From a virus (Duplodnaviria; Heunggongvirae; Uroviricota; Caudoviricetes), in the IMG/VR virus record IMGVR_UViG_2681813234_000010, positions 1 to 16,514 of that record: a stretch of DNA of 16,514 nt; one strand, written 5' to 3'. The position numbers were made by a program, and so were the translations under genes. This document shows, piece by piece, positions 2,579 to 7,630 of this stretch. The notes under the pieces are model-generated. The model saw only the letters and a list, made by a program, of their open reading frames with translations, was not told the DNA's origin and searched no databases. The first letter of the stretch is position 1; every line of letters begins with the position of its first letter.

Positions 2579-3079
2579 ATGAAAAAGGAAAAAAGAAATG
2601 ACCTAAAGGGTCAGGAATTACCACATGTAAAAGAAGCACTACGAGTATGGAATAACTTTCACTCAAGAGTGCGTAATAACATCAATTATAGTACTGTTAC
2701 CATCTGCGATGACTGGTATCGGTTTAGTAATTTTTATTATTGGTATGTTGAAAATGTTGTTGATGGTTGGCATTTAGATAAAGACATATTAGGAGGTAAT
2801 GAGTACAGCCCAAGTAACTGCATCTTTGTACCGAGAGAAGTAAATCAATTGTTCCGTAAAGCACCAACGTCATTATCAACCGGTGTTGTCGTTAATCATA
2901 AGGGCTATCAAGCACAAGCAACATTTGATAAGAAAGTACATAAGTTTGGGACATACCCAACGATAGAAGAAGCTCATGCTGCTTATGTTATTGGGCGTAA
3001 ATCATATATCTATAAACTATCGCAGAAGTATAAAGCATATCCAAAACTTAGTGCGGTACTATTACAAAAATCAAAATAA
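2579..3079 (+). CDS. HNH-type endonuclease-like protein with a C-terminal AP2-like DNA-binding domain
   Basis: ATG at 2579 with AAGGA 6 nt upstream. Residues WHLDKDILGGNEYSPSNCIFVPREVN match an HNH_3-style H...N...N motif. The downstream GYQAQATFDKKVHKFGTYPTIEEAHAAY resembles an AP2 domain, a pairing common in phage homing-endonuclease-like proteins. Confidence 0.55.
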   Translation: MKKEKRNDLKGQELPHVKEALRVWNNFHSRVRNNINYSTVTICDDWYRFSNFYYWYVENVVDGWHLDKDILGGNEYSPSNCIFVPREVNQLFRKAPTSLSTGVVVNHKGYQAQATFDKKVHKFGTYPTIEEAHAAYVIGRKSYIYKLSQKYKAYPKLSAVLLQKSK

Positions 3080-3144
3080 CGAAATGGCCTGAGTACTGGA
3101 AATACTACAGGTCAATATTAACATCTATCATATGGGTATTTATT

Positions 3145-3669
3145 ATGACAAAAAAGAAAGAGCCGCATGAAATAAAGAAACGTGGACGAAAACCAAAAGA
3201 ACACGATAATGCAGAATTACAAGATCATTTAAGGGGAGTACGCCATCTTAATCAACTTACAGATGAAGTACGTAGAGTAATATCAAACTCTGTTAAAAGT
3301 TACTTTGAAAAGAACAATAAACGTAAGACTTTCTCAAACAAGAATATGCTACTTCTGGTTACATCGACTCGATACATCACAGATGAAGCGATAAAGAACA
3401 ATATCGAGTACTTTGATGCCTTCACACTCAATGAGTACGGCGATTCCTCAGTACGAGATTATAAGATGGTCACGATTGCTATATGTGAGGGTCTGAATGC
3501 AATTCTAAGTAGTGGTAAGCCAGTAAGAAGTGATACACCAGAGGGATCACAGTACTTAACTGGTGAAGAAGCATATCAACTACGTATGGCTTTAGATGGT
3601 GGCTGTACTAAGGCAGACCTACTAAAGGTTATAGCTACAATTTATCCCGAATTAAGACATTCTAAGTAG
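3145..3669 (+). CDS. Hypothetical protein with a basic AT-hook-like N-terminus; possible DNA-binding regulator
   Basis: ORF of 174 aa. The N-terminus has KKRGRKPKE (AT-hook-like). The C-terminal LTGEEAYQLRMALDGGCTKADLLKVIATIY loosely resembles a helix-turn-helix of the sigma region-4 type. Function not established. Confidence 0.5.
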   Translation: MTKKKEPHEIKKRGRKPKEHDNAELQDHLRGVRHLNQLTDEVRRVISNSVKSYFEKNNKRKTFSNKNMLLLVTSTRYITDEAIKNNIEYFDAFTLNEYGDSSVRDYKMVTIAICEGLNAILSSGKPVRSDTPEGSQYLTGEEAYQLRMALDGGCTKADLLKVIATIYPELRHSK

Positions 3670-4122
3670 TGTTTTAATAACGGTTCAAATGTCGTAATTA
3701 AGGTTAAATGGGGTTTTTATGGGGTTGATTAGTGCTGCTTGCACTAGATATAGTATCTAAAATGAGTTAAAAAACACTGTATATGGGTTGTCCCGAATTT
3801 CGACACCATAATTAGAAATTATTAAGACCTCTTGTACTACGTCCAAATCGGTCTTTGAGTGCCTACACTCCCTGCGGTCGTATAGTCACTGAAAAACAAA
3901 TTAAACCGATCCTTGCGTTTTTTCTCGCTAGTACTCGAAAAACACGCAGGGGATTTACTCGCTTTCGCTCAGACAGGTAACAGTACTGACTAAACTATTG
4001 GGGTCGGCCTATGGCCTAAAGTTCGCTTCGCTCTTTTTGAAGTATCTACGCGGGCTAAGCCCTTGTTGGGGTTATCGGGCTGTTTAAGCCCTTACTGAAG
4101 TCATCAAATTATCTAACGACAC

Positions 4123-4246
4123 GAAGCAGTACTATCAATTGATTACTTCAAATGAGTTACTAAGTGAGCAGTCGTCTCACTTGCAATACTTATGATCTAT
4201 ATAAATGAAATCTGCAAGTGAGACTCCGGAGAAGTAGTACTATCAA
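4123..4246. repeat. Two 16-bp direct repeats (15/16 identical) bracketing a palindromic site
   Basis: GAAGCAGTACTATCAA at 4123-4138 and GAAGTAGTACTATCAA at 4231-4246. An extra AAGTGAG half-site copy sits at 4162-4168. Confidence 0.6.
4174..4224. repeat. 51-bp site: perfect 12-bp inverted repeat with a 27-bp AT-rich spacer (candidate attP, origin or operator)
   Basis: GTCTCACTTGCA (4174-4185) and its exact reverse complement TGCAAGTGAGAC (4213-4224). The spacer ATACTTATGATCTATATAAATGAAATC contains a GATC and a TATA-like run. Confidence 0.6.
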
Positions 4247-4403
4247 GTCACATATATTTGAGTACTGAATGATTTAGTTAGTCACAGTTGAAATAATTAA
4301 TATATAAAGGTCTACTTATAAATTCTACCGTGACAACCATCTACTATTTCAATCCAGGCCATTATGACTGGGTTTACGGGAAGCGTGAATAAAACTGTCT
4401 CAG

Positions 4404-5138
4404 TCAACTCAATAAAATTTCCATACTTGTGGGTGAAAACATACGATAGCTGATAATGTCACCTACATTGAAATTTGTTTGGAAAAAACTTCTAAGATCT
4501 GTTCCTCCCATGATTCTAGGTACTTTATTAGTGTTTGCCGTTCTGTTAATGATTGCAGTGAGGCTTGTATTGGTGCTGGAGTTAGTTATTTTTATTCTTG
4601 CACCATCTTCTCCAAACTCATGACTGGCAGCCACGGTAACGTTGAAAAATCCTCTTTGCCAATATGTATTAGCCATTCTGAAATTGTAAGTCGGGCTTGA
4701 TTTCTCTGAAGTGACAATTTCTATGTAATCTGTCGTGATTATCTTTTCCTGATAACCATTCCACTCAGGCTGTAGTACTCTAATTATGTCATCTTCTAAT
4801 GCAGCAGCTAGGTTTAAGTGAAATTGACCATAGTGCATTAATCCATTATCGGGTAAAACAAAAATGTCTACCGCTTCATTGTTTTTTAGATGCCTAATAA
4901 TATTCGCGTTGTTTTTTATATTTGTTGATTGAGTAGGGCCTGGCATAGAATAATGATACATTCTACGTTTAAGTAAACGAGTAGTTTTGCCTACATATTT
5001 TACCTGACCATCACAAATGAACGCATAAAGATTATTTTTGACATCTGAGTGAGAAGGTTCAAGTGTAAATTGTAGTTTTTCGCCATTGAGTTCCCAAAAG
5101 CCAATTTTAATAAATCCAATTTCAAGTAATCTATTCAT
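4404..5138 (-). CDS. GIY-YIG nuclease-domain protein with an unrecognised ~110-aa C-terminal domain
   Basis: ORF of 244 aa. Residues LYAFICDGQVKYVGKTTRLLKRRMYHY match the GIY...YIG core with the conserved Arg. Downstream, AAALEDDIIRVLQPEWN matches the conserved Glu and Asn region (compare UvrC ALLLEHNYIKLYQPRYN). The start ATG overlaps the stop of the upstream gene (ATGAATAG on the minus strand). Confidence 0.65.
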   Translation of the reverse strand: MNRLLEIGFIKIGFWELNGEKLQFTLEPSHSDVKNNLYAFICDGQVKYVGKTTRLLKRRMYHYSMPGPTQSTNIKNNANIIRHLKNNEAVDIFVLPDNGLMHYGQFHLNLAAALEDDIIRVLQPEWNGYQEKIITTDYIEIVTSEKSSPTYNFRMANTYWQRGFFNVTVAASHEFGEDGARIKITNSSTNTSLTAIINRTANTNKVPRIMGGTDLRSFFQTNFNVGDIISYRMFSPTSMEILLS

Positions 5139-5877
5139 GTATGACCTTCTTTCGAACTATGAATTTGTCAGTGGGGTAATTATTTGAATAGGTAGAAATA
5201 ATAAACGCTGAAACTTTCCGGTGTGTCTCTGTAACCTGATTCTTAAACTCTAAAAATTCAGCAATAGTTAAATCTTTTGCCTGTCGGTCTGCGTGTATCA
5301 GTGAGTCAACTTCAAAATATGAAGAAAGAAATAAGTTGTATATATTCCCATATTCCCGATTAGTGTCCTTAAGGATATTAATGATAGAGCAACTATAGTT
5401 ACTTAATTCAAAACCATTTCTTGGTATTGTATTTAAACTGTTAATTACTGAATAGGAGAGGTTAGCGAACTCATCCATTAAATTATCTAACTTGTGAACC
5501 TCATTTCTTAGTGATTCGTTGATGGCACAATTGTTATTTAATACGCTGATCGATTGTTTGCCCACTGACCAATATAAATTTCTCAAATGGTGGCTGGCAG
5601 AATTAACTTTTGTTAAATTAGTATAAATCGATTCTTCGATAACATTATGAACCACATCATATTGCTTTTGTGCTAACCATTCAGGTGCTTTTTTATACGC
5701 AGCAATCGCTATACCTAAAGTACCAATTGTAGCTAATGAACTCAACCAATCACTTACGCTTCCCCATTCAAAGCCATTAGAATCAGAAAATAGTACTTTA
5801 ATTAAAGCTAATATCGCTACCCATAGAAGTACTATGACGGTAGCAACTAATAATTTGTTCCATCCTTCAACTTTCAC
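5131..5877 (-). CDS. Membrane protein with two N-terminal transmembrane helices and a ~180-aa soluble domain
   Basis: ORF of 248 aa with a probable GTG start at 5877. Hydrophobic segments LLVATVIVLLWVAILALIKVLF and WLSSLATIGTLGIAIAAY. Its stop overlaps the start of the GIY-YIG gene by 8 nt, implying an operon. Confidence 0.55.
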   Translation of the reverse strand: MKVEGWNKLLVATVIVLLWVAILALIKVLFSDSNGFEWGSVSDWLSSLATIGTLGIAIAAYKKAPEWLAQKQYDVVHNVIEESIYTNLTKVNSASHHLRNLYWSVGKQSISVLNNNCAINESLRNEVHKLDNLMDEFANLSYSVINSLNTIPRNGFELSNYSCSIINILKDTNREYGNIYNLFLSSYFEVDSLIHADRQAKDLTIAEFLEFKNQVTETHRKVSAFIISTYSNNYPTDKFIVRKKVIHE

Positions 5878-6049
5878 TTTCTTAACCCGTAGAATGGTTC
5901 ATGGATGAAAAATTTTACCATTTGCAGTTATGTTTCGTAAATGATCATCGTAGAGTGAAAATTTAACTTAAGTGGAAGTTGCAACTCCATTTGGTGGAGT
6001 TGTACTGGTTGAGATCACGATTTCTTTGAAAAAAACGGGGCTGGTTGCT

Positions 6050-6076
6050 TTGAACTGGTTAACATAGTGGGATAAT
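6050..6076 (+). promoter_or_regulatory. Putative promoter for the HNH / PD-(D/E)xK cassette
   Basis: TTGAAC at 6050-6055, then TG (6068-6069) followed by GATAAT at 6071-6076 (extended -10-like). AGGAG at 6100-6104 precedes the ATG at 6110. Confidence 0.3.
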
Positions 6077-6109
6077 AAGCACCGAAGAAGAACTTCAGCA
6101 GGAGCAGGT

Positions 6110-6838
6110 ATGAACAGAAAGCAATTCATCCAGTCACACGGAGCTACTTGCAGTAACTGGACGTGGAGTTGGTCATTTGTTAACCATGAAAAGAAGATGG
6201 TCATCTTTGGGTCATGGGATGTTGAGAGTGAACAAGAGCGGTCTGTAATACTCCGGGAGAAATGGGAATACAACTCAAACAACAAAAAACAACCGGGATA
6301 CACCCAGGCACTGGAACACATCCGTTTAGCCCATGAAGGCTACGAACTTTACACCTTCAATATGGTTTTCGCAGAACACCCTGAGAATCCTGAAATTGCA
6401 GTAATCAAGGATTTTGAGCGTAAATTAAACAAGCGATATCTTCGTAAAGAAGGTGTTGTTTGGTATGCAGACTTCTTACCTAATCCATTCCCTGATGAAA
6501 TTCCTTCAGGAGAGAGTTTTGTTGAAGGTGCAAAGACTCAAGTAACAGTGAACTACTACGAACGCGATCCAAAGGCCCGACAAGCCTGCATCCAGCATCA
6601 CGGTACTACCTGTAAATGCTGTGGCTTCGATTTTGAGAAGGTCTATGGTACACATGGCCGTGGGTTCATTCATGTACATCACATCAAGCCGCTTCATACG
6701 ATTGGGGAAAACTATGTGGTCAATCCCGTAACAGATATGATCCCATTATGTCCAAACTGCCATGCAATGGTACATCACGGAAGCGAAGTACTTACAATTG
6801 CAGATTTGAAAAAGAAAATGACATTCTGGAGCGAGTAA
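6110..6838 (+). CDS. Zn-finger HNH endonuclease (McrA-like HNH) with an unrecognised ~150-aa N-terminal domain
   Basis: ORF of 242 aa with a good ribosome-binding site. The C-terminus CKCCGFDFEKVYGTHGRGFIHVHHIKPL...DMIPLCPNCHAMVHH is a classic HNH motif with CxxC...CxxCH zinc ligands, as in McrA-type enzymes. The N-terminal domain has no motif I can assign. Confidence 0.7.
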   Translation: MNRKQFIQSHGATCSNWTWSWSFVNHEKKMVIFGSWDVESEQERSVILREKWEYNSNNKKQPGYTQALEHIRLAHEGYELYTFNMVFAEHPENPEIAVIKDFERKLNKRYLRKEGVVWYADFLPNPFPDEIPSGESFVEGAKTQVTVNYYERDPKARQACIQHHGTTCKCCGFDFEKVYGTHGRGFIHVHHIKPLHTIGENYVVNPVTDMIPLCPNCHAMVHHGSEVLTIADLKKKMTFWSE

Positions 6839-7630
6839 ATGGATTTATCACAATTGAGCAACGTCGAATTGATGCAACTGAATCAGTTGACGCTTGATGA
6901 GTTAGAACGACGAGAGGTTATCAGAACCAGAAACAATCCTATCAGTGAGTACACTGAATGGCTGGTTGCGGATAAGATGCAGATGGTACTGGCTGCACCT
7001 AGTACTAAAGGGTATGACGCTACAACAACTGATGATCGAAAAATTCAGATTAAGTCTCGTAAGAATAATTTAAAAAACCAATCATTAATTCTTGGAATTA
7101 TCAGAAATTATGATCTGAACCAATTCGATGAACTCATTGCCGTAATATATAACCATGATTTCTCAATTCGTTATGCCATATCCATACCACATGAATTAGT
7201 GAAGGAATATGGTTTTTATAATGAGCATCAGAATGGGTACACTTTAAGAATAAGCAATTTATTACTTAATGATCCACGTGTAACAGATATCATTGAATTT
7301 ATTGACCCAGACACTGAACGTTCAAAGGAAGATATCACGGTGAAGCCAGATTCAAACACTATCCGGGATGTACAGACAATAGGAATGCAGACGTTTGTTG
7401 AGTACTATCAGTATGTTGAAAGTGGTATGAACACAACTGATCTTGTTGAAAAGATGGTAACTGACCATCCAGAATGGAAGGAAAGTACTGCAAGAACAAA
7501 GGCATCTTCAATGCGAAGAGTATTTAAGAATTGCGACAACGTTGAAGCACTAAAAATCATCTATAAGTCGGATCACCCAGCAATAACGGATGAGATTAAG
7601 AGTAAACTTATGACGCTTTGGGATAAATGA
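6839..7630 (+). CDS. Hypothetical protein with a PD-(D/E)xK-like (Hjc/restriction-endonuclease-fold) motif
   Basis: ATG at 6839 directly abuts the TAA of the HNH gene (TAAATG). EWLVADKMQMVLAAPSTKGYDATTTDDRKIQIKSRK fits an E ... D ... (E/Q)xK nuclease-core pattern. The fold assignment is tentative. Confidence 0.5.
   Translation: MDLSQLSNVELMQLNQLTLDELERREVIRTRNNPISEYTEWLVADKMQMVLAAPSTKGYDATTTDDRKIQIKSRKNNLKNQSLILGIIRNYDLNQFDELIAVIYNHDFSIRYAISIPHELVKEYGFYNEHQNGYTLRISNLLLNDPRVTDIIEFIDPDTERSKEDITVKPDSNTIRDVQTIGMQTFVEYYQYVESGMNTTDLVEKMVTDHPEWKESTARTKASSMRRVFKNCDNVEALKIIYKSDHPAITDEIKSKLMTLWDK

Follow-up and report, generated by a model that had tools for sequence, protein, structure and literature searches.

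The window analyzed here, which is the whole 16,514-nucleotide (nt) stretch of IMG/VR virus record IMGVR_UViG_2681813234_000010, represents one end of a prophage. It begins with a partial large serine recombinase gene (positions 1-1236) and several small genes, followed by an HNH-like gene of 166 amino acids (aa), a 174-aa gene, a 734-nt stretch free of open reading frames (ORFs) at 3670-4403, and a cargo region. The cargo codes for a GIY-YIG protein plus a membrane protein and for HNH, DUF6998 and DUF3800 proteins, and is followed by the head genes terS, terL and portal, which are lambda-like. The subject of this report is the ORF-free stretch, and above all the conserved element that occupies its left part. 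An earlier sequence-only reading had described the stretch as noncoding, placed between convergent genes, and rich in repeats and short hairpins. The description was accurate: the longest ORF was 41 aa (3855-3980, TTG start), the two flanking genes converge, and the duplicated ATGGGGTT, the imperfect palindrome centred on CTAGTACT and three GC-rich mini-hairpins (GGCC-TAT-GGCC at 4006-4016, GGGC-TAA-GCCC at 4052-4062, and GGGCT-GTTTA-AGCCC) were all found where they had been placed (Table 1). The whole 734 nt folded better than dinucleotide shuffles on both strands (z = -2.88 for the plus strand and -4.11 for the minus strand, 20 shuffles each). Short GC hairpins on their own mean little, and relatives are needed to sort them.

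Loci (numbered with L) were retrieved for proteins homologous to the 174-aa protein, with identities ranging from 88% to 40%. In all of them, the partner gene was followed by a gap of 510-870 nt without a credible gene, although some gene callers placed an ORF of 61-120 aa inside. The gap was kept with either a serine or a tyrosine recombinase, at any insertion site and with any downstream gene (CI-like repressor, Tlde1, 8xMP, EAL, T5orf172 or HNH). The first ~320 nt of the gap in the window aligned to the gaps of the relatives at 83-95%, and shorter islands aligned in the most distant ones. Additional viral and metagenomic members were found by a scan with an invariant 18-mer of the element, an nhmmer profile and a gapped pattern; their upstream proteins had 157-187 aa and ~20% identity to the 174-aa family, and were preceded by an HNH_3/NUMOD4 gene and, where the contig was long enough, also by a serine recombinase. 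In at least 20 prophage lineages, the element was present behind a homologue of the 174-aa gene, irrespective of integrase type or downstream cargo, in E. coli, Enterobacter, Raoultella, Citrobacter, Kosakonia and Buttiauxella as well as on viral and metagenomic contigs. Its neighbours were a serine or tyrosine integrase and usually an HNH_3/NUMOD4 gene; in L039 and Buttiauxella L262, the partner position was occupied by an unannotated protein of 461/464 aa. The next gene was co-directional in 7 of 10 relatives, which fits a rightward transcript.

The level of conservation changed sharply along the locus. Compared with five relatives, the 174-aa gene was 70-94% identical, positions 3695-3794 were 50-70% identical, and the core at 3795-3944 was 92-100% identical. 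Since the core is more conserved than the gene, the constraint acts at the nucleotide level, and it starts just downstream of a -10-like box. No coding potential was detected in the element. Stops occurred in every frame, ORFs of related loci matched in several frames and equally on both strands, and lineages differed in length by numbers not divisible by three. In Citrobacter, a 120-aa ORF had been called across the core, but stops close it in the window and in Enterobacter (L020), and a small ORF in the tail (29 aa, 3998-4087) was broken by an 11-nt difference in mid-ORF between the window and L039. The proposal that the stretch is the remnant of a decayed gene was therefore not upheld.

The ORF-free stretch was found to be a composite of three units of different origin and not the single unit previously assumed: the family element (3670 to ~4138), a local insert (4139-4237), and the 3' flank of the cargo operon (4238-4403). 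The right-hand limits are fixed by Buttiauxella L262, which carries the same GIY-YIG cassette: 4061-4138 was 86% identical to L262, 4238-4500 was 78% identical, and 4139-4237 was missing. The flank was not common to relatives with other cargo. In E. coli C483 (L016), only the first 325 nt matched (95%), with different sequence and different cargo thereafter. Direct repeats of 16 bp (4123-4138 and 4231-4246) flank the insert, which contains a perfect 12-bp inverted repeat (4174-4185/4213-4224). No further copy was found in 5,426 complete E. coli genomes, and a miniature inverted-repeat transposable element was rejected on this ground.

The promoter-side part of the element carries repeats that differ from lineage to lineage. 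The operator- or iteron-like repeat CCCGAATTWMGACA occurred three times (≤ 2 mismatches) in the 16.5-kb window compared with 0.23 expected, and none of 200 shuffles reached three. The constraint on its first copy, which overlaps the partner gene, is not coding, because the same motif sits after the stop codon in L035. The duplicated ATGGGGTT resembles TATGGGGTTAT, which is present five times at the homologous position in L113. All 13 lineages carried an 11-mer repeat of their own within the 300 nt that precede hairpin H1, present 3-5 times in both orientations when ≤ 1 mismatch was allowed; the counts were above every shuffle in 8 of the 13 and equal to the shuffle maximum in the rest. These lineage-specific repeats include AGTGTAGAGTT, CATCTTTCCGA/TTGGAAAGATG, AAAAACGGGTA, TATGGGGTTAT, ATGGCCTATTT and TACGGTTATTA, with TTGGAAAGATG-type repeats belonging to the L037/L264 lineage. 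A -10-like box (TATAAT, TATATT, TAATAT or TATATG) was located 160-185 nt upstream of the 18-mer in 13/13 lineages while the surrounding sequence differed, and one copy of the lineage repeat adjoined it in the 13 lineages tested. A second, upstream promoter candidate was matched to the sigma-70 consensus only; its -10-like T(A/T)TAGT recurred in close relatives.

Table 1. Features of the ORF-free stretch and its borders (positions in the window)
Feature	Position	Strand	Remarks
174-aa gene, constant upstream partner	3145-3669	+	Predicted all-helical protein, basic N-terminus KKRGRKPK
CCCGAATTWMGACA repeat, copy 1, operator- or iteron-like	3646-3659	+	Overlaps last codons of 174-aa gene
CCCGAATTWMGACA repeat, copy 2	3690-3703	-	Inverted, 2 mismatches
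Duplicated ATGGGGTT	3708-3726	+	Copies start at 3708 and 3719
Sigma-70-like promoter candidate TTGATT-18-TATAGT	3725-3754	+	9/12 consensus matches; consensus match only
-10-like box TATATG	3780-3785	+	Position kept in all lineages tested
CCCGAATTWMGACA repeat, copy 3	3792-3805	+	Just downstream of -10-like box, near predicted transcript start
AT-rich stretch CATAATTAGAAATTATTAAGA	3807-3827		Conserved in close relatives
P0 stem	3847-3852 with 3905-3910 (span 3847-3910)	+	Encloses H1 and A-rich linker AAAAAC (3892-3897)
Hairpin H1	3854-3894	+	Core stem 3858-3865 with 3883-3890
Hairpin H2, palindrome centred on CTAGTACT	3911-3952	+	16 modelled pairs, 81% of cells paired
Invariant 18-mer CTCGCTTTCGCTCAGACA, tandem UCGCU motif	3958-3975	+	Most conserved block of the family
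AGTACT after 18-mer (CAGTACTG)	3982-3987		(A/T)GTACT in nearly all members
Type 1 tail module	3996-4138	+	Common to L039, L040, L016/L255, L035, L257, L262
Second UCGCU repeat TTCGCTTCGCTC	4022-4033	+	Inside type 1 tail
CTACGCG	4046-4052	+	Inside type 1 tail
CCTTGTTGGGG	4061-4071	+	Inside type 1 tail
Mini-hairpin GGGCTGTTTAAGCCC (GGGCT-GTTTA-AGCCC)	4077-4091	+	Inside type 1 tail
Window-specific insert	4139-4237		~100 nt; absent from otherwise collinear Buttiauxella L262
3' flank of GIY-YIG/membrane-protein cargo operon	4238-4403	-	78% identity to L262 cassette flank
Convergent GIY-YIG nuclease family gene (244 aa)	4404-5138	-	Homologue names and PHROG endonuclease match; right border, outside element

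Downstream of the box, hairpins were retained while their sequences changed. The H1 stem reads AGUGcCUA/UAGuCACU in the window and AGAGcCUA/UAGuCUCU, GGGGUAAUAG/CUAUUACCCC, AAGAUCAAA/UUUGAUCUU, AAGGCGGUUAG/CUAACUGCCUU or AAGGGU/ACCCUU elsewhere; it was wholly different in L037, L028, L039 and L035, and the loop usually contained YTCGCTTTGCTCG (YUCGCUUUGCUCG). A variable stem with a conserved loop is the opposite of what a duplex protein-binding palindrome would present, and it favours a folded single strand. Enclosing stems like P0, of different sequence, were present in L257, L033, L254 and L042. In H2, the GCG/CGC base and the U-run/A-run were constant, and the apical part was swapped on both arms in L035, L040 and L041, so that the palindrome pointed out by the sequence-only reading is kept in related genomes with compensatory changes. 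A covariance model was built from 12 sequences with the structure of H1 and H2 given by hand, and 20 members were aligned to it. In this alignment, 85.2% of cells were paired compared with 70.3% in shuffles (0/500 reached the observed value) and 42-55% when the partners were slid by 1-3 columns; 16 pairs were changed on both sides (9.1 expected). All seven H1 pairs covaried, with 94.6% of cells paired. RNAalifold on a plain MAFFT alignment returned no structure, because the stems are not alignable by sequence. Rearrangements were observed precisely at the H1 loop motif: L253:14242-14432 contains three tandem copies of the half-hairpin AGTCTCTAAAGAGCCTAACATCGCTTTGCTCGTC, and in L252/L260 family homology starts at CATCGCTTTGCTCG, with unrelated sequence to its left.

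The block after H2 was identical or carried 1-3 changes in all members. This 18-mer has one copy in the window, and no complementary target copies were found there (a single match even with 3 mismatches, both strands). Read on the minus strand, this invariant motif is GAGCGAAAGCGAG, a mini-hairpin of the GNRA type. The 18-mer is followed by interchangeable tails. Type 1, the tail of the window, is replaced in other lineages by an alternative type 2, and L040 has the two in tandem, with a separate copy of the 18-mer ahead of each. Within the type 1 tail, GGGCTGTTTAAGCCC recurred as GGGCTGTT[G/A]AAGCCC in L039, L040, L257 and L262. GGCC-TAT-GGCC recurred in L039, in L035 as GACC-TAC-GGTC with both sides changed, and in L033 as GGTC-TTGC-GGCC; GGGC-TAA-GCCC was present in the window and in no relative.

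The partner of the element is predicted to be helical (pLDDT, the predicted local distance difference test score, 78.8), with weak fold matches to SANT/SLIDE and homeodomain-like DNA-binding folds, and is a candidate nucleic-acid-binding regulator. No Pfam, PHROG or PADLOC family was matched by the partner proteins.

Taken together, the segment from 3670 to ~4138 belongs to a family of integrase-proximal prophage elements that had not been described before. It may quite plausibly consist of an operator-controlled promoter and a structured plus-strand noncoding RNA of ~300 nt, which is the reading that we tentatively prefer. From the H1 pattern, the fixed distance of the -10-like box, the onset of conservation after the box and the mostly co-directional downstream genes, a plus-strand transcript is favoured. 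The adjacent small helical protein (174 aa here) would bind the lineage-specific repeats ahead of the -10-like box as well as copy 3, which comes right after the box, and would thereby control transcription. A transcript starting near 3792 would contain P0/H1, the A-rich linker, H2, the 18-mer as a single strand, and one of the two tails. The invariant C/U-rich UCGCU repeats, placed in a hairpin loop or between hairpins, would probably be where a partner, either a protein or a purine-rich RNA, makes contact, and the RNA could act as a stand-alone regulator or as the leader of the variable cargo region that starts right after it. The earlier suggestion of a structured noncoding RNA therefore stands for the left 430-470 nt, which are conserved, noncoding and hairpin-bearing, show compensatory stem changes and lie behind a -10-like box. 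It does not extend to the right third, which is outside the conserved element; transcription and its strand are what we infer, and a role at the DNA level competes with it.

Several observations weigh against this reading. A -35 box could not be recognised, and the RNA would lack an intrinsic terminator at its end. A convergent gene follows the element in the window, L017 and L028, which rules out a leader function as a general property. The covariance-model alignment had itself been fitted to the structure, some of the covariation counted in H2 stems from lineages being out of register by one column, and in L016 a deletion at the base of H2 is uncompensated. Wobble pairs allow no strand call, since G-U-type cells (22) and A-C-type cells (19) were balanced in the modelled stems. 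The minus strand folded more stably in 12/12 members, with a more negative z-score in 8/12; for 3790-4100, z was -0.56 on the plus strand and -2.81 on the minus strand. Finally, iteron-type replication origins are laid out in the same succession of repeats, AT-rich stretch and hairpins.

A serious competitor, though on balance rather unlikely, is a DNA site acting in cis. An iteron-type replication origin, or else some other site of protein-DNA assembly, would be its most plausible form. The adjacent protein would bind the repeats, the AT-rich stretch would melt, and the hairpins and the 18-mer would act in single-stranded DNA (ssDNA), for example as a priming or loading signal. Such a site would account for the 3-5 lineage repeats in both orientations ahead of the AT-rich stretch and the conserved hairpins, an arrangement that resembles oriLambda and RSF1010 oriV with its ssi hairpins. 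It would also account for wobble pairs without strand asymmetry and for folding of both strands, as expected of DNA hairpins, and the motif occurs three times in the 3' intergenic region of an ssDNA-virus-like contig of 2.36 kb (L036). However, no recognisable replication initiator, helicase loader or primase adjoins the element, and the partner is an unannotated protein of only 157-187 aa. A 200-nt core at 92-100% identity exceeds the usual conservation of origins, and the 18-mer was absent from 72,556 plasmids, where single-strand origins are common. The -10-like box at a fixed distance also speaks against an origin, although origins can need transcription as well.

The sequence-only reading had also offered terminators for both flanking operons. 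In the canonical sense this was not supported: no intrinsic terminator-like site was found in 3000-5200 on either strand compared with 1.2 expected, and the GC mini-hairpins were followed by UUGUUGG, UUACUG or UAAAGUU, not by U-tracts. In a wider form, the stretch would be an end-of-operon region with noncanonical terminators, RNA-processing or stability signals for the integrase-side (plus) and/or cargo (minus) operon, and the functional RNA could be minus-strand read-through or a 3' untranslated region. We consider this unlikely. It agrees with the position between convergent genes, with the greater stability of the minus strand in the window and all 12 members tested, and with the GNRA-type mini-hairpin GAGCGAAAGCGAG as minus-strand loop; many bacterial hairpins with the same loop (described below) also lie between convergent ORFs, by rough and noisy ORF calls, and fold equally on both strands. 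However, the position and orientation of the element relative to the upstream gene were kept also where the downstream gene was co-directional (7/10 relatives), a terminator needs neither repeats nor a -10-like box, and an invariant core of 300 nt is far beyond the needs of termination.

Very improbable is the absence of any function of its own. The element would then be what is left of a decayed gene, or a scar from recombination where mosaic segments meet, and would be similar between phages only through recent exchange. It does lie exactly at the border of the variable cargo, homology between the window and C483 stops ~20 nt past the 18-mer, copies of the motif coincide with breakpoints or duplications in L252/L260, L253 and L040, and the Citrobacter ORF was called over the core, but such junction coincidences carry little weight because a conserved block by definition ends where mosaic junctions begin, recent exchange cannot explain key blocks that persist where the adjacent protein is ~20% identical, the stems change by compensatory substitution, and the coding evidence given above is negative.

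Known identities were examined and rejected. A search with Rfam 15 (4227 models, gathering and E-value thresholds) left the whole window without a match at gathering thresholds, and no credible one was returned for seven relatives; over 3500-4600, only noise from eukaryotic microRNAs and small nucleolar RNAs was returned (E > 2). ARAGORN found no transfer RNA or transfer-messenger RNA. A phage attachment site (attP) of the large serine recombinase was rejected because the junction of prophage and host, at yeaG, is on the other side of int; the 42-bp H2 palindrome lies 2.7 kb inside the prophage, and the same palindrome also occurs beside a tyrosine integrase. For arrays of clustered regularly interspaced short palindromic repeats (CRISPR), repeats of type III toxin-antitoxin RNAs and TIGR-like arrays, the only candidate was a 14-nt repeat of 2.4 copies with a low score, and no repeat family went beyond two-copy matches. 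Group I/II introns, retrons, bridge/omega RNA and CRISPR-like systems were dismissed for want of an adjacent partner protein, an Rfam match or arrays. A literature search by motif sequence and by description returned nothing relevant.

The 18-mer was also found beyond the prophages. It occurred at 56 loci in a one-genome-per-species collection, compared with ~17 expected (596 Gb, two strands, divided by 4^18). At ~40 of the 56, AA preceded the 18-mer, which formed the apical loop of a long imperfect hairpin of 130-200 nt. The loop AACTCGCTTTCGCTCAGACA was constant across these ~40 hairpins while the stems shared no sequence between genomes, with 40-59 nested pairs within 168 nt; six examples gave fold z-scores of -4.8 to -9.3. 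The loci are L043-L098, with L047:4626-4771, L052:706-851, L053, L075, L076:2917-3062, L077:1585-1730, L091:2120-2265 and L265:2890-3100 as examples. The hosts were Clostridia (several Lachnospiraceae/Blautia), Bacteroidota, Proteobacteria, Acidobacteriota, candidate phyla and others. Some metagenome-assembled genomes had ~10 hairpin copies, often at contig ends, and one Blautia contig had four in 2.6 kb beside parA/parB. The hairpins are not assembly artefacts, because the syntenic copies in L053 and L077 differ by paired stem changes. An A-rich internal loop (UAAAAR opposite UAAC) recurred in them; no recurrent adjacent protein family was found, and no Rfam family covered them.

In the phage collection, the loop was present in only one record, an unverified fecal scaffold. 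Contig L036 (2,357 nt) looks like an ssDNA virus because it encodes a Rep with CFTLNN, HLQGY and YCSK motifs and a capsid-like protein; three spaced motif copies (ACTCGCTTTCGCTCAGACAAG and two variants) lie between the 3' ends of its two genes. Single-strand origins of the ssoA type are long imperfect hairpins of rolling-circle plasmids with the hexamer CS-6 (TAGCGT) in the terminal loop. An origin of this type was considered for the long hairpins, which have a similar shape and AGCGA twice in the minus-strand loop, and was rejected, as the loop had no match in the 72,556 plasmids. In the prophage family, the motif sites are the H1-type loop and the 18-mer. One speculative possibility is that AACUCGCUUUCGCUCAGACA is a previously undescribed nucleic-acid signal displayed on stems that are free to vary, through which a single host factor, itself widely conserved, might be engaged by phages and chromosomes alike; priming, termination or processing, and RNA docking are examples of what it could serve.

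A second unexpected feature of the window was an excess of AGTACT, by far its most over-represented hexamer, with 55 copies in 16.5 kb compared with 4.9 ± 2.3 expected from dinucleotide shuffles (0/200 reached this number). Its positions include 232, 598, 2540, 3930, 3982, 4128, 4236, 4261 and 16193, often as CAGTACTG, and it was spread over the three codon phases (19/7/16) and intergenic sequence (13). Related phage contigs (L035, L039 and L040) had 2.9-4.9 copies per kb against ~0.3 per kb estimated from base composition. The excess is the opposite of restriction-site avoidance. Together with the cross-phylum loop motif, it is the most surprising by-product of the analysis.

With regard to the prophage as a whole, the recombinase adjoins yeaG (PrkA) in the source genomes, and this yeaG is 100% identical to that of E. 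coli. The region was carried at 100% identity by 13 independent assemblies, and a variant of it was present in 1 of the 5,426 complete E. coli genomes (C483, L016). Near and distant DNA searches of the phage database gave no match, the 174-aa protein had no tblastn match in 50,697 phage records, and the nearest TerL in the phage collection was 34.8% identical. A pattern scan of IMG/VR for relatives of the GIY-YIG protein found none. IS3-family insertions were observed in two otherwise identical copies of the prophage end, one in the 174-aa gene and one in the serine recombinase gene (L002:7661-8823 and L007:1475-2625); both copies retained an intact 734-nt region. The segment from the element to the HNH gene at 6110 (window 4404-7630; L016:8682-12177, L262, L264) is an exchangeable cargo slot, occupied by the GIY-YIG and membrane-protein genes in the window and by two other genes in C483. 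The cargo HNH (242 aa) and DUF6998 (263 aa) proteins matched PADLOC models for methyl-directed restriction enzymes, namely mREase_IV and mREase_II (E = 1.3e-62 for mREase_II). In a Citrobacter relative (L024:7481-9548), a reverse transcriptase gene (RVT_1) stands beside an STM3845-family gene ~2 kb downstream of the element; the pair is probably retron-type defence cargo unrelated to the element itself.

If the segment does specify an operator-controlled noncoding RNA, it would define a new family of prophage-borne structured RNAs with a regulated promoter of their own. Located at the left edge of cargo with nuclease and methyl-directed restriction-like genes, the element could then control the expression or exchange of this cargo. 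The promoter-side repeats appear to co-vary with the adjacent small protein, which makes the pair a candidate protein-DNA specificity code. That 18 nt remain invariant while the neighbouring protein drifts to ~20% identity, and recur as a loop across phyla, points to a novel partner. An origin or a terminator-like region would instead be ordinary phage architecture.

Among known systems, the nut boxA/boxB sites of lambda and the put RNA of HK022 share with the element a promoter-proximal hairpin pair in a lambdoid-type phage with variable genes downstream. A comparison with boxA (CGCUCUUUA) found CGCTCTTT at 4029-4036, and this boxA-like octamer, CGCUCUUU, is followed by small GC hairpins, including GGGC-TAA-GCCC. 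However, the octamer was present only in the window and L033, and ~2% of such regions have one by chance; the boxB-like hairpin is not conserved, the downstream genes of the window are convergent, and no N-like protein was identified in the window, where N homology itself was not searched. Iteron-type origins (oriLambda; RSF1010 oriV with ssiA/ssiB) likewise combine several repeat copies beside an AT-rich stretch with hairpins, and the element has this combination, with its lineage repeats next to the gene of a small DNA-binding-like protein. It differs from them in the lack of initiator, helicase or primase homology, in its unusually long invariant core and in the conserved -10-like box. The CI RNA of P4 and the c4 RNA of P1/P7 are, like the putative transcript here, noncoding and hairpin-forming products of the lysogeny-side region of a temperate element, with short conserved single-stranded segments able to pair and repeated sites at the promoter; the element shows no sequence or covariance-model similarity to them and is ~300 nt long with a modular tail. 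GOLLD, ROOL and other orphan RNA motifs are much larger, with far more helices, and their Rfam models gave no match; the element shares with them its carriage by prophages, nucleotide-level conservation beyond that of the neighbouring genes, covarying stems, and self-complementary loop sequences, here AGUACU in the H2 loop.

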